DNA from: Clostridia bacterium
GTDB taxonomy: Bacteria; Bacillota; Clostridia; UMGS1883
Length of the DNA stretch: 15,688 bases
Assembly: GCA_051866635.1 (NCBI GenBank)
Contig: JBJDXJ010000017.1
Span: 1-15,688 of the forward strand
Direction of reading: 5' to 3'
Under the pieces are notes generated by a model. The model was not told the DNA's origin, searched no databases, and saw only the letters and a program-made list of their open reading frames with translations. Positions 1-14,766 of the stretch are shown here, piece by piece (position 1 is the stretch's first letter; each line of letters opens with the position of its first letter). The position numbers and the translations under genes are program-made.

Positions 1-16
1 GGCATTGCCTTTTTTG

Positions 17-41
17 AACCACGCCACTATGGCGTGGTTTT
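17..41 (+). terminator. Intrinsic terminator-like hairpin, probably for a convergent gene left of the window
   Basis: aaccacgcca (17-26) / tggcgtggtt (30-39) is a perfect 10-bp stem with a 3-nt loop; T-rich sequence follows on the + strand. Confidence 0.55.
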
Positions 42-53
42 CGTTTACACAAT

Positions 54-86
54 AAAATGGCTATGACAATTGTCATAGCCATTTTT
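54..86. terminator. Perfect 32-bp palindrome; likely bidirectional terminator of the cohesin/dockerin operon
   Basis: aaaatggctatgacaattgtcatagccatttt (54-85) is its own reverse complement. It lies 11 nt past the stop of the 702-aa gene and has T-runs on both strands. Confidence 0.75.
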
Positions 87-96
87 GTATTAAGTT

Positions 97-2205
97 TTAC
101 TTTACTTCAACTGTATTACTTAAATCCTTCATACCCTCAAAACTGTTCCATACAAAGGCTTTAAGTACTGCACCCTCTGTGCCTGTGAGCTTACCGCCAA
201 ATACAACGCTCTGACCCTTTGCAAATTCTGACTTCATATATGTCATATCTACAAAGACTCCGTCCTTGTACACCGCAATTATTATCGTATCCTTTTCATT
301 GCGGTCTGTGTTTTTAGTAACGCTCACTTCTGCATAGAAACTGCCGTTCCTTACTTCACCTGTAAGATAGTTTACGGTATAATCCATCACTTCTGTTGTT
401 TCACTTTCCACCTTAACAACGCCGTTTACAATTTCTACATTAAGCTCGTTAAGTATCTGGTCAGTGGGAACATCATATTCGTCATAGGAAAGCGTTACGG
501 GGATTTCGCCTTCTGCATCTTCAGATACAAGGAATTTTACAGTAAACGCTTCCCCTGTTCCTGTTACATTTGAGGGGTTTACCCAGTAAGCTGTTACAGT
601 GTCAAATCTGCTCAAATCGCCGCCCTGCTGAATGTTACTTGTAATTGTACCGGATGTAAGTGCACCGCCCTGTGTTATTGAAACAGGTGTCAGTTTTTCT
701 TTGTCGTAACCAAGCTGAAGGTTAAAGCCTGCAACGCCTGTATTCTTTGTTATTGACACAGGAATATCAACATATTCCCCTGCCTTTGCACTTACTTCTC
801 CTACTTCAAATGTGATTTCTCCCTGTCCGAACAAATCTACATTGAAAAGGGAAACATCCCACTTTGCAAGGTACTGGCTAAGGCGTACACCGTCCTTTGT
901 GTTTACAACTCCGTCACTGTAAACATCCGCGGCTTTAAGTTCGTAAGCATTAAGAGAAACTTCCCACTTTGCAAGGTACTGGCTAAGACGTACTCCGTCC
1001 TTTGTATTGACAATACCGTCTTGGTAAACATCGCCCATTACAATATTTTTAACTGTAACAGCACCGTTTGTAATTTCAAGTGCAACATCATCATAATCCT
1101 GATTTGTAATATCGCCTTCTTCATATGTGATTGTTACGGGGATTTCGCCTTCTTCTGCTCCTTCGGCAACTTTAAATGTTACATTAAGTATTTCACCGTT
1201 ATTGGTCACATTGGAAGGATTCTGCCAGTATGCTGTCACAAATTCATATGCACTCATGTCACCGCCCTGCTGAATGTTACTTGTAAGTGTACCGGCAGTT
1301 AACGCACTGCCCTTTTCTATTGAGACAGGTGTCAGAAGGGTTTTGTCGTAATTTATTGTAAGGTTAAAGCCTGCAATGCCTACGTTGTTTGAAATTGATA
1401 TGGGGATAGTTACCGTTTCACCTGCTTTTGCGGTAACTGTGCCAACTGTAATGGAGGCGGCGTTTGTAGGTTCATCTTTCTTAGTTACTGTTACAGTACA
1501 AGTAGCTTCTTTCCCTCCGTCTGCCGTTGTAACTGTAATTGTAGCAGTTCCTGCCGCCTTTGCTGTCACTTTGCCATTTGACACTGTTGCAACGCTTTCA
1601 TCTGATGATTTCCAAGTAACTGTCTTATTTGTTGCATTGTCAGGTGTAACTGTTGCAATTAATGTTTCACTGTCGCCCACTGTAAGATTTGCGGTTGTCT
1701 TGTTGAGGCTTACACCTGTTACAGAAACCTGTGTACTTTCTTCGGCAATTGAAATTGTTTTTTCGGCATTTGTACAAGTAAGATAATTTGTATCTATGTC
1801 AGCCAACTTAAATTTTTCCGTTGAAAAGCTTGCCGTTCCTGCATTTGTCAGCTTAAATGTGGCAGTTAACATAACTCCACCGCTTGACGATACCGTTTCG
1901 CTGCCTGCAAAATTCATTCTTATTTTGTTCACAGCATAGGTTTTATTTACCGTCTTTGAAAAGGCGGCAATAACATCGCCTGCCACAGCGTCAATAAGTT
2001 CCATCTTCGTATTGTCATAAACAAGGTTAAAACTGCCGCCTGCCGCATTTGTGTTTTCAGGAAGTGATACCGTAACTGTTACACTATCACCCACTTTTCC
2101 GCCTTCTGCCTTAATGATGGGTTGAAATGCCGCCGCATAGCATATATTGCCGAGAGACATCAATAACATACAAGTTATTATGATGCCGCTTAATATTTTT
2201 TTCAT
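97..2205 (-). CDS. Secreted scaffoldin-like protein: signal peptide, cohesin 1, Big_2 Ig-like domain, cohesin 2, dockerin, cohesin 3, ~95-aa unknown C-terminal domain
   Basis: RBS AAGGGGGAG precedes the ATG, and the N-terminus is a signal peptide (MKKILSGIIITCMLLMSLGNICYA). Three cohesin-like segments are visible (GDSVTVTVS..GGSFNLVYDNTKMEL; AKAGETVTIPISI..GIAGFNLTINYDKTLL; AKAGEYVDIPVSI..GVAGFNLQLGYDKEKL). The Big_2 motif reads VTGVSLNKTT..VTWKSSDESVATV. The dockerin repeat is duplicated (GDVYQDGIVNTKD..ADVYSDGVVNTKD). Confidence 0.88.
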   Translation of the reverse strand: MKKILSGIIITCMLLMSLGNICYAAAFQPIIKAEGGKVGDSVTVTVSLPENTNAAGGSFNLVYDNTKMELIDAVAGDVIAAFSKTVNKTYAVNKIRMNFAGSETVSSSGGVMLTATFKLTNAGTASFSTEKFKLADIDTNYLTCTNAEKTISIAEESTQVSVTGVSLNKTTANLTVGDSETLIATVTPDNATNKTVTWKSSDESVATVSNGKVTAKAAGTATITVTTADGGKEATCTVTVTKKDEPTNAASITVGTVTAKAGETVTIPISISNNVGIAGFNLTINYDKTLLTPVSIEKGSALTAGTLTSNIQQGGDMSAYEFVTAYWQNPSNVTNNGEILNVTFKVAEGAEEGEIPVTITYEEGDITNQDYDDVALEITNGAVTVKNIVMGDVYQDGIVNTKDGVRLSQYLAKWEVSLNAYELKAADVYSDGVVNTKDGVRLSQYLAKWDVSLFNVDLFGQGEITFEVGEVSAKAGEYVDIPVSITKNTGVAGFNLQLGYDKEKLTPVSITQGGALTSGTITSNIQQGGDLSRFDTVTAYWVNPSNVTGTGEAFTVKFLVSEDAEGEIPVTLSYDEYDVPTDQILNELNVEIVNGVVKVESETTEVMDYTVNYLTGEVRNGSFYAEVSVTKNTDRNEKDTIIIAVYKDGVFVDMTYMKSEFAKGQSVVFGGKLTGTEGAVLKAFVWNSFEGMKDLSNTVEVK

Positions 2206-2224
2206 TCAAAACTCCCCCTTTTCC

Positions 2225-5200
2225 TTAGTTAAATGATGATATAAGACCGCTGTCATACTTTAAAATAAGTATTGCATCTACAAAGTCAACATCGCCGTCG
2301 CCGTTTACATCTGCCGCCTTTAAGCTGTCTCCCGCAAGGGTAGTTACCCCTGCGTCATACTTTAAAATAAGTATTGCGTCTGCAAAGTCAACATCTCCGT
2401 CGCCGTTTACGTCACCTTTAACAATAGAAGGTTCAGCTTCTGTAACCGTTACTTTACATGTTGCTGTAAATTCGCCGTCAGACGTTGTAACTGTAATTGT
2501 AGCCGTGCCTGCCGCCTTCGCTGTTACTTTTCCGTTTTCAACTGTTGCTACACTTGTGTTTGATGATTCCCATGTAATAGCCTTATTTGTGGCAGTGTCA
2601 GGTGTAACAGTTGCCGTAAGTGTTTCAGTACCGCCAACTGTAAGATTTGCAGTTGTCTTATTGAGGCTTACGCCTGTTACCGAAATATTGTCGTCCTTTT
2701 TTTCAGTAACCGTTACTTTACATGTTGCCGTAAATTCACCTTCGAGTGTTGTAACCGTAATTATTGTTGAACCTACTTTTTTACCTGTTACAACACCATT
2801 TGCTACTGTTGCAACTTCTTCAATTTTGCTTGACCAACTTACTTCAGGATTTGTTGCGTTAACAGGGAGAACCGTTGCTGTAAGTGTATAAGTCCTACCT
2901 TCTTCAACACTTATTTCAAGTTTATCAAGCTCTACTCCCGTTACATCAATTCTGTATTCAGGTACATATCCTGTCAGGTAAGCGTAGCCACTGTTTATAT
3001 CGCTGTCAATGCTCCAGATGTTGTCAAAATCCCATCCCACAAAAGAATCCTTAATTTTTAATGCATCATCGGAAAGAGGGGTACCGCGGTCAATATCGGA
3101 AAGACCTGTCACTGTGCTGTTATAGTAGGAGGAAAGAACTGAGTTTCGTGTGGAACTGTTGCTTCCACCAATAAGACCACCTCTGTTTGAGCCTGTAACC
3201 TCACCGTTGGAATAACAGAAGTTAATTGCAGTATATCCATAATTACCATTATACACCTGCGTATATCCGACGAGACCGCCGGTGTATATTGTTGGTCCGT
3301 TACTCCATGTTTCACCGGTAACCTTGCCTACAGCAAAGCTGTTTCTTATTGTTGCCGTTGTGCCTGAATTGTTGTTATATAAATAACCGACTAAACCTCC
3401 GGCGTGGGCACCGTTTACGCTACCTGTTGCATAGCTTGCTTCAACGAGAGCATTGTGCACAAAGCCAACAAGTCCACCTGTTCTGCTGCCGTAGGAGTCT
3501 ACTTTAGCAGAGGAGTTTGAATATCTTATCTTGCCCGGGTTTTGGTGATAACCTACCAAACCACCTACATATCGTGATTCTCCATGTGTCCAGCTTTCAA
3601 CAAGACCGAAGGAGGAGCAGTTTTCAATAGTACCGGCATTTAATCCGCATAGAAGCCCTGTATATTCTGCCCCTTTAAAGTAACCTTCAACATTTAAGTT
3701 CTTGATTGTACCTTCGTTACTACCGAACAAGCCTGTATACTGATATTCACTGTTTGACAATTTAAGCCCCGAAATTGTATATCCGTTACCGTCGAATATA
3801 CCTTTGAACACCGTTCGTCCGTTACCGCCGATGGGCGTCCAATGTTCAGCTGTTATTTCAATGTCGTTTTGAAGCTGATAGTAAAAATTTGTTGTAAGGT
3901 CATATGTTTCAAGGACCAATGTCCACAAATCCTCTTCCGTTTCAATCAGGTATGGGTCTTCCTCGTCACCATATCCCTCGAGGTAATGTGTTTTAGCTTT
4001 TCCGTTTACGTTATGGTAAGGATAGCCGTTATTTACCGAAGGGTCAATTGCCCATATGTTTTTAAAGTTCCACATATAGTACAATTCTTCTGTTGCCATC
4101 TGTCCAAGGCTTGCGGAAAAACCGATTCTATTGCCGGTATTCGCTCCGTTATAATAGCTGTACCTTACATGTACACGGTCACGTGTATTATGGTCACCAA
4201 CAAGACCACCGCCTGTGCCGTTATTTATAAGACCTGTTGCATAACAATATTCAACATGGATATATCCATAGTTACCATTGTTTACCTTGGCATAACCAAC
4301 AAGGCCGCCGGTGTATATTGTTGGTCCTCCGCTCCATGTTTCACCGGTTACAGCACCTGTCGCATAGCTGTTTCTTATTGTTGCTGTTGTGCTTGAATCA
4401 TTGTTATATAAATAACCGACTAAACCTCCGGCGTGGGCACCGTTTACGCTACCTGTTGCATAGCTTGCTTCAACGAGAGCATTGTGCACAAAGCCAACAA
4501 GTCCACCTGTTCTGCTACCGTAGGAATTTACAGTAGCAGATGAGTTTGCATCAATTATTTTCCCTGGGTTTTGGTGATAGCCTACCAAACCACCTACATA
4601 TCGTGATTCCCCATGTGTCCAGCTTTCAACAAGACCGGAGGAGGAGCAGTTTTCAATAGTGCCGGTATTTAATCCGCATAGAAGTCCTGTAAATTCTGCA
4701 CCTTGAAAATCACCTTCAACATTTAAGTTTTTGATTGTACCTTCATTACAACCAAACAAGCCTGTATACTGGTATTCGCTATTTGACAGTGTAAGTCCCG
4801 AAATTGTATATCCGTTGCCATCAAATATACCTTTAAATGCATTTGTTGCATTGCCACCGATAGGAGTCCAGAAATTTGCGGTAACTTCAATATCATTCAT
4901 CAGCTTGTAAAAATGTTTGATGGATAAATCATAGTTGCCGTATGTGTCAAGTACAAGGGCACGCAAATCCTTTTCAGTGTAAATAAGGTAAGGATTATCC
5001 TCTTCACCGTTGCCTTTCAAAACGGTTTTCGGTGTTTCCCCACGTACATCAATGTGTGGGTAAGAGGTATTAACACCCTTAGTTATCTGCCATATATTAT
5101 CAAAATCCCATCCGTAGAAGGTTTCCTGCTTCTTTAAGTCAGCTGTAGACACTGCAAAACCAATGCGGTTGCCCGTGTTTGTATTGTTGTAATAACAGTA

Positions 5201-7348
5201 TCTTATTCTGTTTCTGTCACGTGTATTGTGACCGCCCAGTAAACCGCCGTTTGTGCCGCCAGTTACAAGACCACGGGCATAACAGTATTCAATATGGACG
5301 TATCCATAATTACCATTGTATACCTTGCTATAACCAACAAGACCTCCTGTATAGTTACTGCCGTTAACCTTACCCATTGCATAACAGTTTGAAATTGTTG
5401 CAACCGTACTTGAGCTGCCATTTTCAACATATCCAACAAAACCTCCGGCATTAGAACCTGTTACATCACCTGTTGCATAGCTGTACTTAATGGTGCCGTT
5501 ATAATGGTAGCCTACAAGACCTCCGGCATTTGCACCGGGTGCTTCAACAAAGGCAGAAGAGCCGCATTTTGTAATAACACCCCGGTTATTACCCACAAGA
5601 CCACCCACATCACGTGAGTTTGTATCATTCGTCACCTTATAATCTTCGTCTTCGATATAGGTATAACAATTATCAATTGTTCCGCTGTTATATCCGCAAA
5701 GAATACCGGTGTACACATTGCCGCTGAACCAACCTTCAACATTTAAGTTTTTAATTGTACCGTAATTGTACCCAAACAAACCTGTTCCGTTATAATAGCA
5801 ATTGTCAAGATGTACACCTGTTATGCTGTAACCGTTGCCGTCAAACACGCCTGTAAAGCCGCCTGTTGAGTCAACACCGATAGGTGTCCAGAAATTTGCC
5901 GTAACAGCAATGTCATTTGCCATTTTATAATGTGCACCAAGTGCATTGGGTAGCTTTTGTGATGCAATATAGCAAAGCTGTTTTTCGTTTGTCACTATGT
6001 AAGGGCTTGCCTCTGTGCCTTCGCCTTCAATATCTATTGTTATTTTCCCACGTAAATCAATGTAAGGGTAACCTCCGTTCTTATCGGAAGCAATGTTCCA
6101 CACGTGTTCAAAATCCCAGTCATAGAAATTTGTCTTATCGGTAAATTTCAAAAGGGACATACTGTGACCGTATTCATTCGTCTCATTAACAGTATTAAAG
6201 TAGGAATATTTAATAAGCACTCTGTCCTGACTTGATATACCGCTTGTAAGGCCGCCCTTGGAATTACCCTTTGTAATAACGCCCTTGGCATAGCAGTATT
6301 CAATAGTTGCATATCCATAGCTATTGTTGTATACTTTGGCATAACCTACTATGCCGCCTACTGTATTTCCGCCCTTAATTTTACCTAAAGAATAGCAGTT
6401 TGAAATTTTTGCATGAGTAGATGTACTGTTATTGTACATATAACCTGTAATACCGCCTACGGTATCACCAACTAAACCACCATCGTCAGCCTCTTCAACA
6501 TCTGCAGTTGAAGCACAGTATTCAATAACACCGTTAAGATTATAGCCTGCAATACCGCCTACAGTGGAGCTTGGTGCATCAATCAAAACTGCCGAGCTAC
6601 AGTTTGTAATTGTGCCGCCGCTGTTGTAACCTACAAGACCGCCGATGTATTTATTTTCGGCAGTTGTAATTGAACCTGTGGAATGACAGTTTTCAATTCT
6701 GCCGTAGTTCGTTGCACAAAGCGTACCTGTATTTGTTGCAACTTCTTCAATTGTCACATTTACATTAAGGTTCTTAATTAAACCCTTGTTCTGTCCGAAA
6801 ACACCGCTCATAGCAGTAGACTGAAACAATTTTGTGCTTGAAATGGTATGTCCGTTACCGTCAAACACGCCTGTAAACGGGTCATATGCACCGACAGGTG
6901 CCCATGTATCAGCAGTAAGTACAATATCAGATTGCAAGGACCAATATGCACTCATACCGCCATCCACGTTACCTACCGCAAAGCTTATAAGCTGTGCTTC
7001 TGTGTAAACAAGGTACGGGTCCTCCTCAGTACCGCTGCCTGTAATGCCTTGAGAAGCAGCATCGCCAAACAGTTGCACATCATCAGCCTGCTTCAAAATA
7101 GCTTCATCAAAAATTTCCTGAATCTCCTTTTCAAAGGCTTTTTCATCAGGTGGCGAAAGATGAAAAACTTCTTCTGTGCTTTCTTCTGCGACATATGATT
7201 CTTCACCTGTTTCTGCCGTCACTTCTTCCGCAATTTCAGTTTCTACATCGGAACTATCTTCCTCTGCCAATACGCCCACACTTGTCAATGAAAAAATCAT
7301 TGCAATTGCAAGCAAAACCGAAATAATTCTTTTACTTTGCTCTTTCAT
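2225..7348 (-). CDS. Large secreted GLUG-repeat (predicted beta-helix) protein with two Big_2 domains and a C-terminal dockerin; no catalytic domain recognised
   Basis: ATG at 7348 is preferred over the GTG at 7354 because GGAGGA (7355-7360) lies 6 nt upstream. A signal peptide is followed by an acidic pro-like region. Many GG(L/I)(V/A)G GLUG motifs form four modules, each starting G-x-G-x-E-x-x-PY. Two VTGV-x-L..VATV Ig repeats follow. The C-terminus is a dockerin (GDVNGDGDVDFADA..ADVNGDGDVDFVDA). Confidence 0.9.
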   Translation of the reverse strand: MKEQSKRIISVLLAIAMIFSLTSVGVLAEEDSSDVETEIAEEVTAETGEESYVAEESTEEVFHLSPPDEKAFEKEIQEIFDEAILKQADDVQLFGDAASQGITGSGTEEDPYLVYTEAQLISFAVGNVDGGMSAYWSLQSDIVLTADTWAPVGAYDPFTGVFDGNGHTISSTKLFQSTAMSGVFGQNKGLIKNLNVNVTIEEVATNTGTLCATNYGRIENCHSTGSITTAENKYIGGLVGYNSGGTITNCSSAVLIDAPSSTVGGIAGYNLNGVIEYCASTADVEEADDGGLVGDTVGGITGYMYNNSTSTHAKISNCYSLGKIKGGNTVGGIVGYAKVYNNSYGYATIEYCYAKGVITKGNSKGGLTSGISSQDRVLIKYSYFNTVNETNEYGHSMSLLKFTDKTNFYDWDFEHVWNIASDKNGGYPYIDLRGKITIDIEGEGTEASPYIVTNEKQLCYIASQKLPNALGAHYKMANDIAVTANFWTPIGVDSTGGFTGVFDGNGYSITGVHLDNCYYNGTGLFGYNYGTIKNLNVEGWFSGNVYTGILCGYNSGTIDNCYTYIEDEDYKVTNDTNSRDVGGLVGNNRGVITKCGSSAFVEAPGANAGGLVGYHYNGTIKYSYATGDVTGSNAGGFVGYVENGSSSTVATISNCYAMGKVNGSNYTGGLVGYSKVYNGNYGYVHIEYCYARGLVTGGTNGGLLGGHNTRDRNRIRYCYYNNTNTGNRIGFAVSTADLKKQETFYGWDFDNIWQITKGVNTSYPHIDVRGETPKTVLKGNGEEDNPYLIYTEKDLRALVLDTYGNYDLSIKHFYKLMNDIEVTANFWTPIGGNATNAFKGIFDGNGYTISGLTLSNSEYQYTGLFGCNEGTIKNLNVEGDFQGAEFTGLLCGLNTGTIENCSSSGLVESWTHGESRYVGGLVGYHQNPGKIIDANSSATVNSYGSRTGGLVGFVHNALVEASYATGSVNGAHAGGLVGYLYNNDSSTTATIRNSYATGAVTGETWSGGPTIYTGGLVGYAKVNNGNYGYIHVEYCYATGLINNGTGGGLVGDHNTRDRVHVRYSYYNGANTGNRIGFSASLGQMATEELYYMWNFKNIWAIDPSVNNGYPYHNVNGKAKTHYLEGYGDEEDPYLIETEEDLWTLVLETYDLTTNFYYQLQNDIEITAEHWTPIGGNGRTVFKGIFDGNGYTISGLKLSNSEYQYTGLFGSNEGTIKNLNVEGYFKGAEYTGLLCGLNAGTIENCSSFGLVESWTHGESRYVGGLVGYHQNPGKIRYSNSSAKVDSYGSRTGGLVGFVHNALVEASYATGSVNGAHAGGLVGYLYNNNSGTTATIRNSFAVGKVTGETWSNGPTIYTGGLVGYTQVYNGNYGYTAINFCYSNGEVTGSNRGGLIGGSNSSTRNSVLSSYYNSTVTGLSDIDRGTPLSDDALKIKDSFVGWDFDNIWSIDSDINSGYAYLTGYVPEYRIDVTGVELDKLEISVEEGRTYTLTATVLPVNATNPEVSWSSKIEEVATVANGVVTGKKVGSTIITVTTLEGEFTATCKVTVTEKKDDNISVTGVSLNKTTANLTVGGTETLTATVTPDTATNKAITWESSNTSVATVENGKVTAKAAGTATITVTTSDGEFTATCKVTVTEAEPSIVKGDVNGDGDVDFADAILILKYDAGVTTLAGDSLKAADVNGDGDVDFVDAILILKYDSGLISSFN
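3275..4820 (-). repeat. Intragenic direct repeat: GLUG modules 3 and 4 are highly similar at DNA level (offset 1029 bp)
   Basis: ~3275-3790 aligns with ~4304-4819 without gaps at the points checked. 3372-3487 and 4401-4516 are identical over 116 bp. Confidence 0.9.
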
Positions 7349-7367
7349 ATACACTCCTCCATTTTAA

Positions 7368-7455
7368 TCTCTTTTAGCTCCATTATAATTCTCTTTAAGC
7401 TAATTGTCAATAATATTTTGGTACGTTAAGCTAATCTAAAAGGAGCTGAAAGAGA
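7368..7455. promoter_or_regulatory. Three copies of AGCTNAAAGAGA; candidate operator sites of the adjacent XRE regulator
   Basis: Minus 7379-7368 agctaaaagaga; minus 7401-7390 agcttaaagaga (inside the promoter spacer); plus 7444-7455 agctgaaagaga (between the xre RBS and ATG). Confidence 0.55.
7382..7410 (-). promoter_or_regulatory. Consensus sigma-A promoter for the GLUG/scaffoldin operon
   Basis: Minus strand reads TTGACA (7410-7405) - 17 bp - TATAAT (7387-7382). Confidence 0.85.
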
Positions 7456-7457
7456 CT

Positions 7458-7778
7458 ATGATAAAACAAGGAGCTTTAGGCAATGCCATACGAAATACAA
7501 GGATTGAAAAGAACTTATCTCAGGAACAGTTAGCTGAATTAGTGGATATTACCCCTACCCATCTTAAGCACATTGAAAGCGAGCATAGAAAGCCCTCAAT
7601 CGAAGTGTTGTTCAAATTGGCTGAGGTTCTCCGTTTTTCTATTGACAATCTCATTTATGAAGGGGATTGTGAAGCTGTCAAATACCAAAAGTACGCTGAA
7701 CTTCTTTTAAACGACTGCTCGGTAAAAGAGTTGAAAACAATTATAGATATAATACAGGCACTTCAGAATAACAGATAA
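7458..7778 (+). CDS. XRE/Cro-C1 family helix-turn-helix transcriptional regulator
   Basis: LGNAIRNTRIEKNLSQEQLAELVDITPTHLKHIESEHRKPSIEVLFKLAEVL is a typical HTH_3 motif. RBS AAAGGAG lies upstream, and the gene is divergent from the GLUG operon. Confidence 0.9.
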   Translation: MIKQGALGNAIRNTRIEKNLSQEQLAELVDITPTHLKHIESEHRKPSIEVLFKLAEVLRFSIDNLIYEGDCEAVKYQKYAELLLNDCSVKELKTIIDIIQALQNNR

Positions 7779-7819: not shown

Positions 7820-7848
7820 TTGACAAAAACCATCCATCGTATTATAAT
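7820..7848 (+). promoter_or_regulatory. Consensus sigma-A promoter of the pyridoxal kinase gene
   Basis: TTGACA (7820-7825) - 17 bp - TATAAT (7843-7848). Confidence 0.8.
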
Positions 7849-7879: not shown

Positions 7880-8704
7880 ATGGATTACAAAAGAATTCTC
7901 ACAATACAGGATATATCCTGTGTGGGTCAGTGTTCTTTGACTGTGGCACTTCCCATAATATCAGCCTGCGGAATTGAGGTATGCCCCCTTCCCTCGGCTG
8001 TTTTGTCAACCCATACAGGTGGGTTCACCGATTTTACATTCCGTGATTTGACAGAGGATTTTTTATCAATCAGTGACCATTGGGAAAAGGAAAATATTCG
8101 CTTCGATGCAGTTTATACAGGTTATCTTGGCTCTATAAATCAGATTGATATTGTTAAGTTAATTATGGATAAACACAACAACGGTTTAAACATTGTTGAC
8201 CCTGCCATGGCAGATAACGGCAAACTTTATAGTGGCTTTGACATGGATTTTGTAGGAGCTATGGCGTCATTGTGTGCAAAAGCCGATATTATCATCCCCA
8301 ACATGACAGAAGCCTGCCTTTTGACGGGGATTGAATACAAAACAAAATATGACCGTGCATACATCGATTCTGTTTTGTCCGCCCTTTTGGATATGGGCGA
8401 TAAAACAATCATCATTACCGGCGTTAGCTATGATGATGAAACTACAGGTGTTGTAGTTTTTGAAAATGGCAAATATCACTATTACAAACATAAAAAAGTC
8501 CGTGGTGTATGCCACGGAACAGGCGATGTATTTGCTTCCGCATTCACAGGTGCATTAATGCGAGGCAAAAGTGCTTATGATGCGGCAGTTATTGCGGCAG
8601 ATTACACACTTTTATGTATTGAAAATACAATTTCAGACCCCGATCATTGGTACGGTGCAAAATTTGAAACCGCCATAGGTGATTTAATTAATATGTTAAA
8701 ATAA
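7880..8704 (+). CDS. pdxK: Pyridoxamine/pyridoxal kinase (ribokinase superfamily, vitamin B6 salvage)
   Basis: Motifs QDISCVGQCSL, LSTHTGGF, VYTGYLGS, VDPAMADNG, IIPNMTEA and the anion-hole motif HGTGDVFAS. Confidence 0.88.
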   Translation: MDYKRILTIQDISCVGQCSLTVALPIISACGIEVCPLPSAVLSTHTGGFTDFTFRDLTEDFLSISDHWEKENIRFDAVYTGYLGSINQIDIVKLIMDKHNNGLNIVDPAMADNGKLYSGFDMDFVGAMASLCAKADIIIPNMTEACLLTGIEYKTKYDRAYIDSVLSALLDMGDKTIIITGVSYDDETTGVVVFENGKYHYYKHKKVRGVCHGTGDVFASAFTGALMRGKSAYDAAVIAADYTLLCIENTISDPDHWYGAKFETAIGDLINMLK

Positions 8705-10027: not shown

Positions 10028-10948
10028 ATGAAAAAAGAAAAAACAACTATTAACAACGTGTCGGAAAATGAATTCCAGAAGGTTGCAAACAAGGTTTCTA
10101 TGACTACCATCATCGGCAATGTGGCGTTATCTTTAGTGAAGCTCCTTGCAGGTATCATCGCACATTCTTCTGCAATGATAAGCGATGCCGTACATTCCGC
10201 ATCGGATGTTTTCAGCACAATCATGGTTATTATCGGCATTAAGCTGTCTGCCAAGGAAGCTGATAAAGAACACCCTTACGGACATGAGCGTATGGAATGT
10301 GTTGCCGCAAATATTCTTGCCATGATTCTTTTCATTACAGGACTGGGCATAGGCTCTAAAGCTCTGGAAAACATTTTAAGCGGTGATTATACAACACTTC
10401 AGGTCCCCGGTGTTTTTGCTTTAGTTGTGGCGATTTTATCAATTGTTACGAAAGAGCTTATGTACCGATACACAAGGTACTATGCAAAGAAGATTGACTC
10501 CGGTGCACTTATGGCAGATGCGTGGCACCACCGTTCGGACGCCTTTTCTTCCATCGGTGCACTAATAGGTATATTGGGAGCAAGGCTTGGTTTTCCCGTT
10601 ATGGACTCCATTGCCAGTCTTGTAATATTCATCTTTATCGCAAAGGCGGCATTTGACATTTTCAAAGATGCCATGGATAAAATGATTGACCACGCCTGTG
10701 ATGACGAAACTGAAAGAGAGATTTATGATTGCGTTATGAAAAATGAAAAGGTCCTTGGCATCGATTTACTCCAGACACGCATCTTCGGCAACAAAATTTA
10801 CATTGATGTGGAAATTCAGGCAGATGCATCATACACCCTTCAGGAGGCACACAACATAGCGGAAGCTGTCCATGACGATATTGAACAAAACTTTCCCAAG
10901 GTAAAACATATTATGGTTCATGTGAACCCCGCAAAAATTGAAGAATAA
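10028..10948 (+). CDS. Cation diffusion facilitator (CzcD/FieF-like) divalent metal exporter
   Basis: SDAVHSASD and DAWHHRSD (HxxxD metal-site motifs), the HPYGH loop, hydrophobic TM segments, and a C-terminal dimerisation domain ending HIMVHVNP. Confidence 0.93.
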   Translation: MKKEKTTINNVSENEFQKVANKVSMTTIIGNVALSLVKLLAGIIAHSSAMISDAVHSASDVFSTIMVIIGIKLSAKEADKEHPYGHERMECVAANILAMILFITGLGIGSKALENILSGDYTTLQVPGVFALVVAILSIVTKELMYRYTRYYAKKIDSGALMADAWHHRSDAFSSIGALIGILGARLGFPVMDSIASLVIFIFIAKAAFDIFKDAMDKMIDHACDDETEREIYDCVMKNEKVLGIDLLQTRIFGNKIYIDVEIQADASYTLQEAHNIAEAVHDDIEQNFPKVKHIMVHVNPAKIEE

Positions 10949-11220: not shown

Positions 11221-12039
11221 TTACAAATTCAGAAAATCTTTTCTGTACTTTACACCGAAAGCCTCTGCAAGTAATTTCATTTCTTCGTCCTTTATGGTGT
11301 TTATCCTTGGAAGATGGGCGGTTAACATATAAATCTGTGCCGCTTTTTCCACCGTTTCAATCAAGCCGAAGGTTTCGTCCATATTTTTGCCTGCACCGTA
11401 AATACCGTGCATGCCCCATACAACAAGCCTGAATTCCTTCATCTTTTCGGCTGTGGCTTCGCCTATTGTGTTATTACCGCAAAGCATCCAAGGAAGAACA
11501 CCCACCCCGTCAGGGAACACAACTATACATTCAGTGCACATTTCCCAAAGGGTGTGTGTAAATTGTTTTTCGTCCAAGGGATGAACATAGTTCATAGCCA
11601 AAGTATTTGTTGGATGGGAATGGATAATAACCCTGTTTTCGTTGTCAACACTAAGTCTTGCCATATGGCTCATAAGATGTGCGGGAAGCTCGCTTGTAAA
11701 CCTGCCTCCGTCTTTATACCCCCACAAAAGTTCCGCAGTTTTTCCGTCCTTACCAATGCGGATTATGCCAAGATTATTTTCAGGGTCTTTTTCCACATTT
11801 TTAAAATATTTGCCTGTGCCTGTCACAATAAAAATCTTCCCGATAAGGCTCTTTGCTTCAAACCCGATGGGGATTGTGCGAATTACATTGTCAATGTCAA
11901 GGTATTCTATAACCTCTTTTTCCTCCAGCATATAGCTTATATTTCCGCCATTTCGCTCGTCCCAGCCAAGGCGGTACATATTAGCGGTTGTGTCCATCAT
12001 TTCTTTTACAAAAGGGGCTGTAAGTATATCTTTCATCAT
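11221..12039 (-). CDS. rhaD: Rhamnulose-1-phosphate aldolase
   Basis: GWDERNGGNIS, VTGTGKYF, TSELPAHL, the HSHPTN zinc motif, and HGIYG. The start overlaps the rhaA stop (ATGA). Confidence 0.95.
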   Translation of the reverse strand: MMKDILTAPFVKEMMDTTANMYRLGWDERNGGNISYMLEEKEVIEYLDIDNVIRTIPIGFEAKSLIGKIFIVTGTGKYFKNVEKDPENNLGIIRIGKDGKTAELLWGYKDGGRFTSELPAHLMSHMARLSVDNENRVIIHSHPTNTLAMNYVHPLDEKQFTHTLWEMCTECIVVFPDGVGVLPWMLCGNNTIGEATAEKMKEFRLVVWGMHGIYGAGKNMDETFGLIETVEKAAQIYMLTAHLPRINTIKDEEMKLLAEAFGVKYRKDFLNL

Positions 12040-13256
12040 CTTTTCACCAAAACTTCCTTCTCGTATTTTAAAACTTCTTCATAATAATTATCTACAACGT
12101 TTTCACGCTTCAAAAATTCCTTCCATATCTGTCCGAAGGGTGCGGTTTTTAACTCCTCAGACAAATACATAAGGTATGTGAAATCGTTGTTTTCCTGTAT
12201 ATCCTTCATATCCGATGGCTCTAAAAGTGCATACAAAAGTGCCTTTTGCACGCTTCTCACCCCTGTAACCCATGCGGAAATACGGTTAATGGAAGCATCA
12301 AAATAGTCAGTTGAAATAAACACCCTGTCAAGTGCATCACAGCGGACAATTTCCTTTGCAATCTCTTTTGTTTCATCGTCAAACAGCACAACGTGGTCGC
12401 TGTCCCATCTTACAGGCCGTGTAACGTGAAGGGCAATTTTGTCGTTGAAAAGCAGTAGTGATGATATTTTGTCGCTTACCATTTCCGTGGGATGATAGTG
12501 TCCGTTGTCCATAAGTGGCGTTACGCCCTTTTCTTGTGCATAGGAAAGGCAAAATTCCGAAGACCCTACAGTATATGATTCAAGCCCGATACCGAAAACC
12601 TTGCTTTCAATGGTTATGTACACATTGTTTTTATCGTAGGGTGTCTCAAGTATTTCATCAAGGGATTTTTTAAACCTTGCACGGGGGCCAAGCCTATCTG
12701 CAGGTATGTCCTTATATCCGTCTGGAATCCATATATTCATAACGCAAGGTACACCGGTCTCGCGGGCAAAATAATCTGCAATACGCACGCACTGTACCCC
12801 GTGGCGTACCCAGTAGGAACGCACTTCTTCATCGGGGGATGAAAGTGTAAGGTTGTCACGAACCATAGGATGGGAGAAAAATGTGGGGTTAAAGTCAAGA
12901 CCAATATTTCTCTCCTTCGCAAAATCCACCCATTCTTGAAAGTCCTCGGGTTCTATCTTGTCCCTTCCCTTATCTCCCTTTAAAATAGCGTAGCTTGCAT
13001 GGAGATTAAGTTTCTTTTTTCCGGGGATTAGAGAAAAAGCCTCGTCAATATCTGCCATTAATTCTTCGGGTGTTGTTGCCTTTCCAATATAATTGCCCGT
13101 TGCCTGAATACCGCCCGACAACGCTTCACGATTGTCAAAGCCTGTCACATCGTCACCTTGCCAACAATGAACCGAAATTGTAACATTTCTAAGTTTTTCA
13201 ATAGCTTCTTCCACATCTACACCTAAAGCGGCGTAATATTTTTTTGCATCCTCCAT
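12036..13256 (-). CDS. rhaA: L-rhamnose isomerase
   Basis: ISVHCWQGDDVTGF, GGIQATGNY, NLHASYA, LDFNPTFFSH, NIWIPDG, ESKVFGIG, GHYHPTE, RPVRWDSDHVV, DYFDASINR; AGGAGG RBS. Confidence 0.96.
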   Translation of the reverse strand: MEDAKKYYAALGVDVEEAIEKLRNVTISVHCWQGDDVTGFDNREALSGGIQATGNYIGKATTPEELMADIDEAFSLIPGKKKLNLHASYAILKGDKGRDKIEPEDFQEWVDFAKERNIGLDFNPTFFSHPMVRDNLTLSSPDEEVRSYWVRHGVQCVRIADYFARETGVPCVMNIWIPDGYKDIPADRLGPRARFKKSLDEILETPYDKNNVYITIESKVFGIGLESYTVGSSEFCLSYAQEKGVTPLMDNGHYHPTEMVSDKISSLLLFNDKIALHVTRPVRWDSDHVVLFDDETKEIAKEIVRCDALDRVFISTDYFDASINRISAWVTGVRSVQKALLYALLEPSDMKDIQENNDFTYLMYLSEELKTAPFGQIWKEFLKRENVVDNYYEEVLKYEKEVLVKR

Positions 13257-13259
13257 TAT

Positions 13260-14624
13260 TTATACCTCCTTAATATCGAAAGACTTTTTCACTAATTCTC
13301 TTGCATTTTCAATTGTCAAATCTTTATCAAGATACATCATCTGACTTATAATATTTCCCGTTGCGGTTGCTTCCACAGGTCCCATATAAACGGGCTTTTT
13401 TGTATATTCATGTAAAAGATAGTTTAAGTACCCGTCACGGCTTCCGCCACCTACAACCCCTATGCTTGTGCAGCTTGTTTCTGTTATGGTTTCAATTTCT
13501 TCAACAGTTTCCTTATATGCCTTTGCCAAAGAATGGTACGTTGCACTTAAAACATCACTTACAGGCAGTTTTTCATCACCTAAAAGTTTTCTTATGGCAC
13601 TTATCATACAATCAGGTGCGGTAAGTGTACTGTCATTTGGGTTAAATGTTTTTGTATATGTACTGCATTTTGCCATATTCATCATTTCGTCGTAAGTGTA
13701 CTTTTTATCAAGGCTCTTCCTTATCCCCTGGAAAAGCCACATACCCATAATGTTTTTTAAAAACCTGTAACGGTAGTTAATTCCGCCTTCATTTGTAAAG
13801 TTTGCTTTTTCTGCACGGCTTTTAAGACAAGGCTCCTTAAGTTCAACGCCCATCAGGCTCCATGTGCCTGATGATATGTAAACCCCTCCTTCATCTAACG
13901 GGCAGGCTAAAACTGCCGAGGCAGTATCGTGGCTGGGGCAGAAAAGGACAAGGGAGTTAAACCCTGCTTCTTTTTGTATTTCCTCCTTAAATTCTCCCAC
14001 CAAAGCCGGCGGCATATCAAGGGGCTTAAAAATATTTTTGTCAATGCCCAGCTTTTCTAAAATTTCCCCGTCCCATGTTTTTTCTGTTGCATTTACAAGG
14101 TTTGTGGTTGTAGCGTTTGTATATTCATTTTTAATAACCCCGGTCAGTTTAAAGGAAAGATATTCGGGCATCATCAAAAAATGCTTTGCCTTATCTAATT
14201 TCCCTGTCAGCTTATCTGTATAAAGCTGATAAATTGTATTAAAGCTTTGTGTCTGTATTCCGCATCTTTCATACAAATCGGGACAAAGCGTTTTTACAGT
14301 GTCAATAACCTCATCGCACCGACTGTCCCTATAGCACATACAAGGCAAAATCTCTTTTTTGTTTTCGTCAAGAAGAACATAGTCAACACCCCATGTGTCA
14401 ATTGCCACGGTTTTGGGGATTTTCCCAATCTCGCCGCATTTTTTAATGCCTTTTTTTACATTTTCAAAAAGAGCTTCTATATCCCATATAAGACTTCCGT
14501 TTTCCGTTTTATATCCGTTTTCGAAACGGTAAATTTCTTCCGTAACAATCCTTCCGCTATCAATATGAGATAGAAGATGCCTACCCGATGAGGCTCCGAT
14601 GTCTATCGCCAGATTATACACCAT
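13260..14624 (-). CDS. rhaB: Rhamnulokinase (FGGY kinase family)
   Basis: LAIDIGASSGR, IDTWGVDY, SHDTASAV, ISSGTWSLMG, FTNEGG, RFLKNIMGMW, VVGGGS, GPVEATA. Start moved to ATG 14624 (MVYNLAID..) because the RBS-like GAAAGGCG precedes it. Confidence 0.94.
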   Translation of the reverse strand: MVYNLAIDIGASSGRHLLSHIDSGRIVTEEIYRFENGYKTENGSLIWDIEALFENVKKGIKKCGEIGKIPKTVAIDTWGVDYVLLDENKKEILPCMCYRDSRCDEVIDTVKTLCPDLYERCGIQTQSFNTIYQLYTDKLTGKLDKAKHFLMMPEYLSFKLTGVIKNEYTNATTTNLVNATEKTWDGEILEKLGIDKNIFKPLDMPPALVGEFKEEIQKEAGFNSLVLFCPSHDTASAVLACPLDEGGVYISSGTWSLMGVELKEPCLKSRAEKANFTNEGGINYRYRFLKNIMGMWLFQGIRKSLDKKYTYDEMMNMAKCSTYTKTFNPNDSTLTAPDCMISAIRKLLGDEKLPVSDVLSATYHSLAKAYKETVEEIETITETSCTSIGVVGGGSRDGYLNYLLHEYTKKPVYMGPVEATATGNIISQMMYLDKDLTIENARELVKKSFDIKEV

Positions 14625-14766
14625 AAAATTCACGCCTTTCGTAAAAATAAGGCAAGATCGCAAACAAAGTCTGCCCCTTGCCTTAATAATAACACATGCA
14701 TATGAAAAACACAATTTAATTTTGTTTATCCCATATTTGATTTTGATGAAAAACTTACTGTACTAT

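Follow-up and report, generated by a model that had tools for sequence, protein, structure and literature searches.

The stretch of DNA analysed here (the window; 15,688 nucleotides, nt) is the entire contig C17 of a draft genome from a Clostridia bacterium (G000; 2.33 Mb, 63 contigs, 96.6% complete), and the left edge of the sequence is base 1. Two secreted genes lie on the same strand at 97-7348 (-), an upstream gene for a large repeat protein that ends in a dockerin (the cargo) and a downstream gene for a protein with three cohesins and a dockerin of its own (the adaptor). The operon formed by these genes is probably a minimal non-cellulosomal cohesin-dockerin display system of an uncultured gut Clostridia bacterium, a reading drawn from sequence. 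Its features are as follows.

7382..7410 (-): operon promoter of sigma-70 type, TTGACA-17-TATAAT, 12/12 consensus matches
2225..7348 (-): cargo gene, 1707 amino acids, stop codon included; identical to library representative P0004
7265..7348 (-): cargo signal peptide MKEQSKRIISVLLAIAMIFSLTSVGVLA, read from the translation
7040-7264 (-): acidic linker of the cargo, directly after the signal peptide
6026..7039 (-): GLUG beta-helix module 1, boundaries by the G-x-G-T-E-x-x-P-Y motif; 42% identical to modules 2-4
5015..6025 (-): GLUG beta-helix module 2 (P0003, the module chosen for modelling), by AlphaFold2 (AF2) model and profile match
3977..5014 (-): GLUG beta-helix module 3, 69% identical to module 4
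2930..3976 (-): GLUG beta-helix module 4, motif boundaries
2444..2929 (-): two Big_2 immunoglobulin (Ig)-like spacer domains of the cargo (Pfam Big_2 2.9e-25, 2 stretches)
2228..2443 (-): cargo-class C-terminal dockerin, GDVNGDGDVDFADAI ... twice (Dockerin_1 5.2e-09)
2206..2224 (-): intergenic spacer of 19 nt with ribosome-binding site (RBS) GGGGGAG and without a terminator, by sequence scan
97..2205 (-): adaptor gene, 702 amino acids, stop codon included, by open reading frame (ORF) and Pfam
1738..2127 (-): Coh1 (Pfam Cohesin), in a cohesin class of its own; putative receptor for the cargo-class dockerin
1492..1722 (-): Big_2 domain of the adaptor (Pfam 3.1e-16, residues 162-238)
400..1455 (-): Coh2-Doc-Coh3 cassette (Coh2 1036-1455, dockerin 850-1035, Coh3 400-816), by Pfam and custom hidden Markov models (HMMs)
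100..384 (-): C-terminal domain (CTD), an Ig-like beta-sandwich with the motif KAFVW..(x)..M..LSN, by AF2 model
51..82 (-): intrinsic-terminator-like hairpin (13-bp stem 57-82) and U-run (51-56), by RNA folding

The two ORFs read on the minus strand span 2225-7354 and 97-2205. ATG 7348 was taken as the true start of the cargo because an RBS (GGAGG) sits 7 nt upstream of it; GTG 7354 overlaps this RBS. The promoter falls in a 103-nt divergent region common to the operon and an XRE-family helix-turn-helix (HTH) gene. The terminator-like hairpin begins 17 nt after the adaptor stop codon, is followed by UUUUAUU and is covered by a perfect 32-nt inverted repeat at 54-85. It came from folding the operon tail (bases 1-99, minus strand), which has a minimum free energy of -40.8 kcal/mol (z = -7.8; 0/200 shuffles as stable); a terminator scan listed no minus-strand terminator after the adaptor stop. 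Both proteins open with typical Sec signal peptides, judged by eye from the translations and not by a predictor. The preliminary description of this DNA, made from the letters alone, had proposed two co-oriented secreted genes 19 bp apart with one promoter and one terminator, and the 12/12 promoter, the 19-nt gap and the folded hairpin bear this out.

The adaptor comprises, in order, a signal peptide, Coh1, Big_2, Coh2, the internal dockerin, Coh3 and the Ig-like CTD. Cohesin (PF00963) was matched in three stretches (E 5.2e-35; 121.1 bits against a cut-off of 24.1), placed at 1750-2112, 1051-1452 and 412-816 by the genome-wide Pfam search, and Dockerin_1 was matched at residues 391-446, between Coh2 and Coh3 (E 5.3e-07; 30.2 bits against 22.9). 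The three cohesins and the dockerin described previously are thus confirmed by Pfam, but the dockerin is internal rather than terminal, and the Big_2 domain and a CTD of ~95 residues are also present. In the alignment of the dockerins, the duplicated DxNxDGxxD-type segments that Dockerin type I requires are seen.

GLUG modules of the cargo protein

Pfam likewise recovered the four GLUG modules, two Big_2 domains and terminal dockerin previously described for the cargo. The modules are four units of 337-349 amino acids, each of which opens with G-x-G-T-E-x-x-P-Y and holds several GLUG motifs. Glug (PF07581) was matched at E 3.6e-50 (165.4 bits against a cut-off of 20.5), and all 10 GLUG motif matches of the genome-wide Pfam search lie within the cargo ORF. 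The C-terminal Dockerin_1 match (PF00404) reaches 36.6 bits (cut-off 22.9), and the two halves of this dockerin are 95% identical in DNA.

Pairwise identity among the four modules is 42-69%. Over 574 bp (3232-3805 vs 4261-4834), the DNA of modules 3 and 4 is 88.7% identical, which is read as a recent tandem duplication; repeats of this kind also carry a risk of mis-assembly, affecting module number, in a short-read draft. Furthermore, the Big_2 domain preceding the cargo dockerin is 79% identical in protein and 82% in DNA to the adaptor Big_2 (2475-2685 vs 1517-1727), far above the similarity of either to the other Big_2 of the cargo, which suggests a recent exchange between both genes.

One GLUG module matches 42,161 representatives at E <= 1e-3, and 3,123 at E <= 1e-30, of a library of 1.84 billion proteins, most of them giant multi-repeat proteins. 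The GLUG-dockerin/CTD architecture is recurrent in metagenomes, given that 23 of the 149 best non-self matches end in a dockerin, a cohesin plus dockerin or CTD, or a CTD alone. Literature searches found no publication on GLUG-dockerin proteins and almost none on multi-GLUG beta-helix proteins.

A single-sequence search of the Protein Data Bank (PDB) with the module gave no match at E <= 1, and a profile of 24 rows (4 window modules and 20 parts of library matches) was needed. This profile matched 3n6z ('putative IgA1 protease' of Bacteroides ovatus, BACOVA_03286) at E 4.5e-36 and the N-terminal region of the IgA1 proteases of S. pneumoniae and G. haemolysans (7uvk/7uvl) at 1e-19 to 2e-22, with the N-terminal domains of the S. 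pneumoniae enzyme (6xja/6xjb/7jgj) at 2.3e-22. The homologous stretch in the solved IgA1 proteases covers residues 115-386 of ~1290; the N-terminal beta-helix part of M26 IgA1 proteases is one that we take to be non-catalytic. The AF2 model of module 2 (predicted local distance difference test, pLDDT, 92.1; predicted template-modelling score, pTM, 0.92) retrieved 3n6z and the IgA1 protease structures first in Foldseek, at template-modelling (TM) scores of 0.56-0.64. Unlike the M26 IgA1 proteases, which share this homologous beta-helix (E 4.5e-36 to 1e-19), the cargo lacks an M26 domain, HExxH and LPXTG, and has four tandem modules and a dockerin end. The candidate identity as an M26 IgA1-specific metalloendopeptidase was rejected, there being no HExxH and no peptidase family in Pfam or NCBIfam.

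The modules could alternatively be enzymes, either beta-helix lyases or hydrolases or a protease, with the operon forming a small degradative complex. The right-handed beta-helix is indeed the fold of the polysaccharide lyase (PL) families PL1 and PL6 and the glycoside hydrolase (GH) family GH28, weak Foldseek rows were returned at E 0.012-1, and the cargos of sister loci include true hydrolases (M23, CHAP and GH25). However, TM scores to pectate lyases, polygalacturonases, chondroitinase B and pectin methylesterase are only 0.19-0.31, with probabilities mostly < 0.3, the 13 invariant columns of the 24-module alignment hold exclusively Gly, Pro, Phe or Trp, and the homologous IgA1 protease stretch lies N-terminal. 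No HExxH or LPXTG was seen in a sequence scan of cargo and adaptor, Pfam found no GH, carbohydrate-binding module (CBM) or peptidase family in either, and NCBIfam returned 0 families for both. Enzymatic GLUG modules are thus very improbable, and a PL1/PL6/GH28-type lyase or hydrolase identity was rejected on the TM scores and invariant columns. Because of the fold match to IgA1 proteases, the low TM scores to lyases and the non-catalytic invariant columns, the modules are read as non-catalytic beta-helices, predicted to serve binding or spacing in an adhesin-like manner. The preliminary description had recognised no glycoside hydrolase, CBM or HExxH in either protein and had assigned GLUG to a non-catalytic stalk type; both statements agree with the scans and with the profile and fold matches.

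Cohesins and dockerins of the genome and its relatives

The genome-wide Pfam search found four dockerin and five cohesin matches, spread over four ORFs. Unfiltered dockerin and cohesin HMMs built for this analysis, run over all 10,927 genome ORFs of >= 60 amino acids, arrived at an identical set, four ORFs with dockerins and two with cohesins, the next matches being at E >= 0.09. The dockerin ORFs carry GLUG and Big_2 (the cargo), cohesins (the adaptor), M23, CHB_HEX_C and Flg_new (a giant protein on contig C11) or no other family (a protein on contig C48). By Pfam, carbohydrate-active enzyme (CAZyme) domains occur on 0/4 of them and GH13 on 0/4; across the genome GH9 had no match and GH5 one, below the cut-off, and the GH48 search was not counted since its control was itself silent. 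With four dockerins and five cohesins, none of them on a CAZyme, there is no cellulosome into which the operon proteins could plug, and the ordinary cellulosome named as the opposing case in the preliminary description is ruled out. Membership of an ordinary cellulosome was rejected on the lack of any dockerin-bearing plant-cell-wall CAZyme and of CBM, SLH and LPXTG in cargo and adaptor, and membership of an amylosome on the lack of GH13 on the four dockerin ORFs. The proposed non-degradative purpose is accordingly supported by domain content, fold and genome inventory.

It is also conceivable that the operon serves a larger cellulosome or amylosome whose genes either fall in the unassembled part of the genome or belong to neighbouring species, in which case docking would cross species. 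The draft state of the 63-contig assembly would allow this, and amylase dockerins of R. bromii are matched by the cargo-class dockerin profile (6e-08 to 2e-05). However, the inventory is small by Pfam and custom HMMs alike, GH9 and GH5 are lacking above cut-off, the putative cognate cohesin is encoded in the same operon, and all checked genomes with this type of operon have similarly few modules (2-4 dockerins, 1-5 cohesins), which makes this alternative highly improbable. In the bacterial family, dockerins are present in 36/64 genomes, with a maximum of 11 per genome.

The giant protein on C11 (2377 amino acids, secreted; G000:C11:57690-64823, L011:5691-12824, -) comprises an M23 peptidase, CHB_HEX_C/Fn3_assoc, Flg_new repeats, a Coh-Doc-Coh cassette and an unassigned C-terminal region of ~300 residues. 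It is the sole cohesin protein of the genome besides the adaptor, and its cassette is 61% identical to that of the adaptor, with position-wise pairing (Coh2 vs cohA 67%, Coh3 vs cohB 61%). Thus, the description of the system as 'self-contained' is probably wrong in detail, given that two more dockerin proteins are encoded elsewhere and one of them, the M23 giant, has the same cassette. The other is a 273-residue protein (G000:C48:3643-4464, L012, -) with a divergent third dockerin type and no other family. An ORF of 899 amino acids lies 41 nt downstream of its gene (L012:902-3601, -), without a Pfam family or cohesin-HMM match; by analogy with the gene order described below, this ORF might hide a divergent receptor.

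Two dockerin classes can be distinguished. The cargo class (GDVNGDGxVDFxDAI...KYDAG) shows 40-81% identity within the class and the internal class (GDVYxDGxVNTKDGVRLSQYLAxWDV) 54-70%, as opposed to 21-36% between classes. The cargo dockerin of the window is 52-81% identical to the dockerins of five other cargo genes (4 loci) and 24-36% identical to the internal class. The cohesins divide in a similar manner: Coh1 has only ~30% identity to Coh2 and Coh3 over 51 residues, Coh2 and Coh3 are 60% identical to each other, and the identity of Coh1 to the cohesin pair of locus L017 is 73% and 59%, and to that of L018 55-58%.

Coh1-type cohesins are rare, occurring in 3/64 genomes of the family, 3/87 of the order and 7/399 scored genomes of a class sample (401 sampled, window genome included). 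The 73%-identical copy sits in a genome absent from the order-wide search that found 3/87, and the patchy spread of the cargo pair may reflect lateral movement. Relatives were located by a protein pattern search and genome searches, which gave 11 Coh1-type loci for examination (the window, L017, L018, L071, L072 and L094-L099) from families f1, f14, f20 (two genomes of one genus), f22, f63 and f72 and from two other genomes. A metagenome scan with the Coh1 profile yielded one locus, L093, which duplicates L018 by ORF layout and adds no independent case. At 10/11 of these loci, which span five or more named Clostridia families, the cohesin gene is immediately preceded by a co-oriented gene whose product has a cargo-class dockerin at its C-terminus, as follows.

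Window (G000): four GLUG modules, two Big_2, dockerin
L017 (G064): BspA LRR_5, four Big_2, dockerin
L018 (G065): RicinB-Big_3-Big_2-dockerin and M23-fn3-RicinB-Big_2-dockerin; two more dockerin genes upstream
L071 (G014): Flg_new-Big_2-dockerin
L072 (G023): CHAP-SH3-dockerin
L094 (G099): Fn3_assoc/ChiA_N-type Ig array with its own cohesin and dockerin
L097 (G227): Fn3_assoc/ChiA_N-type Ig array with its own cohesin and dockerin
L096 (G144): GH25 lysozyme-dockerin (same genus as G205)
L098 (G205): GH25 lysozyme-dockerin
L099 (G471): LRR_5-Flg_new-dockerin

The cargo position therefore appears interchangeable, being filled by adhesin-like repeat proteins or peptidoglycan hydrolases. At L017, L018, L097 and L099, the small proteins encoded after the cargo-dockerin genes contain no cohesins other than the Coh1 type (two, two, two and three copies, respectively). 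From this gene adjacency and co-occurrence we infer that the cargo-class dockerin has its cognate receptor in Coh1. Complex prediction of Coh1 with the cargo dockerin scored 0.17 against a mark of 0.32, without controls, and was counted neither for nor against binding. The cargo would be Sec-secreted and would present four right-handed beta-helix modules on two Big_2 spacers, with the cargo-class dockerin at its end; Coh1 would act as a calcium-dependent receptor for this dockerin, holding one cargo per adaptor. Some relatives seem, from their domain order, to build a cohesin-dockerin hierarchy: at L099 a protein of 535 amino acids (L099:8042-9649, -; G471:C1) has three Coh1-type cohesins and its own cargo-class dockerin, and the large cargo proteins of L094 and L097 have a cohesin directly before their own dockerin.

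The earlier description of the complex as 'multivalent' is also probably incorrect in its details: Coh1 differs from Coh2 and Coh3 and, because only the Coh1 type co-occurs with cargo-class dockerins, the adaptor is probably monovalent for the GLUG cargo. A trivalent mini-scaffoldin would instead take a cargo dockerin on all three cohesins, for an array with up to three cargos on each adaptor, and plug its own dockerin into the M23 giant, which is how classical scaffoldins work, their cohesins holding cargo dockerins and their own dockerin plugging into another cohesin protein. The three Pfam cohesins of the adaptor fit this arrangement, as do the 66% identity between the adaptor and giant dockerins and the 49-67% identity of the giant's cohesins to Coh2 and Coh3. 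It is nevertheless rather improbable, in view of the low identity of Coh1 to Coh2 and Coh3, the small Coh1-only proteins that follow cargo-dockerin genes in relatives, and the presence of cassette proteins in two genomes (G013 and G022) without any cargo-class dockerin.

The Coh-Doc-Coh cassette and possible surface retention

The cassette is not confined to the adaptor and the C11 giant. With the CTD behind it, it also stands at the end of proteins of 785-2385 amino acids whose N-terminal parts vary (CHAP-fn3-Big_2 in L014, for example) and which come from genera g1, g3 and g4 of the family. Two genomes, G013 (96% complete) and G022 (79% complete), each have a single Coh-Doc-Coh ORF that accounts for their sole Dockerin_1 match and their only two Cohesin matches. 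Since these genomes have no other cohesin, the only endogenous partner of the internal dockerin there is a cohesin of the same protein species, which implies that the cassette self-associates, in cis or in trans. The Coh2-Doc-Coh3 cassette of the adaptor, with its own dockerin class, would thus bind itself. The cassette is present twice in the window genome, and if binding occurs in trans, the adaptor and the C11 giant could be cross-linked through their cassettes, so that adaptors may be linked to one another and to the giant.

In a closed form of the cassette, the dockerin would be clasped in cis by one or both flanking cohesins, giving a rigid stalk and a monovalent holder but no network. 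The linkers are short (~5 residues between Coh2 and the dockerin, ~15 between the dockerin and Coh3), the dockerin is near-symmetric (halves 86% identical in DNA), and the sole cohesin-dockerin protein of G013 and G022 fits binding in cis as well as in trans. Dockerins of B. cellulosolvens have reportedly been found to hold two cohesins at once. On the other side, an example of trans association is available from R. bromii Amy4, whose dockerin recognises a cohesin of the same protein and allows auto-aggregation (PMC4611034). The closed form is a minority possibility, and the display reading leaves both geometries in place. A broader combination, in which the exchangeable cargo pair and a trans-polymerising self pair would make up an assembly code of gut Clostridia rich in SLH proteins and devoid of sortase, and the CTD a hitherto unrecognised general surface-retention or sorting module, is likewise rather unlikely; if true, chains or a lattice of the self pair would present adhesins and murein hydrolases together on a common scaffold.

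The CTD matched no Pfam family even at E 10. Its AF2 model (pLDDT 92.4) is a generic Ig-like sandwich in Foldseek, with TM 0.6-0.7 to GH2 accessory domains; in a protein atlas it falls with unnamed Bacillota clusters at 0.92-0.93, where recognition is below the usual mark, and its PDB profile gave a marginal match to the C-terminus of a 1734-residue 'cell surface protein' (8c8k, E 0.042). This domain of ~90 residues ends all five Coh1-bearing proteins first examined, and later also those of L094 and L097. A profile of 26 such domains matches the extreme C-terminus of > 20 other large ORFs of the genome (E 1e-9 to 1e-2), among them C41:18520-23001, C1:4593-9176, C54:3811-5361, C52:86143-88311, C48:11011-14409 and C38:139433-145228, as well as a few N-terminal positions; the CTD is also found on many proteins across the family. 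Genome-wide searches returned 76 SLH matches and no sortase. The CTD could be a lineage-specific surface-retention or sorting domain, and would be the candidate for holding the complex at this SLH-rich, sortase-less cell surface.

The display reading is directly supported by gene structure, domains, fold homology, genome inventory, cohesin and dockerin classes and the conserved adjacency. Several points weigh against it. The pairing of Coh1 with the cargo dockerin is taken from gene adjacency and co-occurrence, and the loci are not independent, as G144 and G205 belong to the same genus and three loci to family f1. At one locus, L095 (G145), no dockerin gene lies upstream; the cohesin gene there follows an 82-residue CTD-like fragment and a Mg-chelatase-type ATPase, and encodes a protein of 380 amino acids (L095:7194-8336, -; G145:C16) in which three SLH domains are fused to a single cohesin of Coh1 type. 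Class assignment beyond the first loci was made with small HMMs of 4-6 sequences each, and the architectures of the classes overlap to some extent, since a Coh2/3-like cohesin stands together with a dockerin of the cargo class in proteins of L094 and L097 and in P0022 and P0040. At the third loop position, the internal dockerin class has Tyr/Phe (GDVYQDG) in place of the Asn of the cargo class (GDVNGDG); the canonical dockerin calcium loop has Asn at that position, so the calcium loop of the internal dockerin may be atypical. Among 63 genomes of the family there is no close orthologue of the cargo, and the best match reaches 40% over part of a module. Finally, the CTD fold is generic and lacks functional precedent, and 0/4 cohesin/dockerin proteins carry SLH, LPXTG or a C-terminal membrane helix, which makes the CTD the only nameable candidate for retention. 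Cell-surface location and adhesive function are, like the partner assignment, what we infer for the cargo. The SLH-fused protein of L095 itself looks like a directly wall-anchored form of the receptor, and the 82-residue ORF beside it like a stranded CTD fragment.

Known systems and neighbouring genes

To our knowledge, nearly everything known of the natural roles of cohesin-dockerin pairs comes from polysaccharide degradation, and in synthetic biology these pairs serve as high-affinity connectors. An earlier survey, 'Noncellulosomal cohesin- and dockerin-like modules in the three domains of life', reportedly treats noncellulosomal modules. Classical cellulosomes (Clostridium thermocellum CipA; Ruminococcus flavefaciens Sca) share with the present system type I-like cohesins and dockerins (PF00963/PF00404), duplicated-segment dockerins and an adaptor protein with both cohesins and a dockerin, and the window modules have PDB sequence matches to cellulosomal cohesins and dockerins; the best PDB match of the cargo-class dockerin profile is 8X39, labelled 'serine protease'. 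Unlike in cellulosomes, however, dockerin-bearing plant-cell-wall CAZymes and CBM3 are lacking here, the cohesin proteins have neither an SLH nor a sortase anchor, the genome has only four dockerins, and the cargo is a predicted non-catalytic beta-helix protein.

The amylosome of R. bromii (Sca1/Amy4, Sca2-4) is likewise found in a gut Firmicute and uses cohesin-dockerin pairs beyond cellulose, but it has GH13 amylase cargos and 26 dockerin proteins, whereas the four dockerin proteins here lack GH13. Amy4 carries a cohesin and a dockerin with self-recognition (PMC4611034), which parallels the Coh-Doc-Coh cassette, although the dockerin of the cassette is flanked by two cohesins. In Cellulosilyticum lentocellum, ClcC and ClcD are encoded by a neighbouring cohesin gene and dockerin gene and form a heterodimer that enhances cellulase activity (PMC13487519). 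This pair of single adjacent genes shows that strongly reduced systems work; it boosts cellulase, whereas the cargo here has no catalytic domain.

Non-cellulolytic 'scaffoldin-containing' microbes with small cohesin-dockerin inventories and without lignocellulose enzymes have been surveyed; Lachnoclostridium sp. MSJ-17 is one example and L. sulfuriphilus, with a scaffoldin-like Coh2-Doc1-Coh1 protein, another, and dockerins fused to non-CAZyme domains are listed as well (PMC11557425). All three traits (small inventories, a Coh-Doc-Coh protein and dockerins on non-CAZyme domains) recur here, and the preliminary description of an 'undescribed system' does not hold in this respect, as such inventories are published. 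The survey gives inventories without partner assignment, and its supplements may list related genomes (PMC11557425). What differs here is the operon rule (a cargo-dockerin gene followed by a Coh1-type gene), the swapped cargos, the two dockerin classes and the GLUG cargo. The locus and its relatives thus offer a compact, testable case of cellulosome hardware that apparently displays adhesin-like proteins and cell-wall hydrolases, in which gene order reveals the partner assignment and Coh-Doc-Coh may be a natural self-assembling module. It would also be the first functional context for multi-GLUG beta-helix proteins, a very large family.

The XRE-family HTH gene (106 amino acids; 7458-7778, +) diverges from the operon promoter region and could regulate the cargo-adaptor operon. 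A second perfect 12/12 consensus promoter lies at 7820-7848 (+), before a phosphomethylpyrimidine-kinase-like gene at 7880-8704. Further along the window are a cation-efflux gene at 10028-10948 (+) and an L-rhamnose catabolism cluster at 11221-14714 (-), which comprises a class II aldolase, a RhaA isomerase (E 2e-175) and an FGGY kinase. At the other end, a GC-rich hairpin with a T-run at 23-38 (+) adjoins the operon terminator and looks like the terminator of a convergent gene beyond the contig end.

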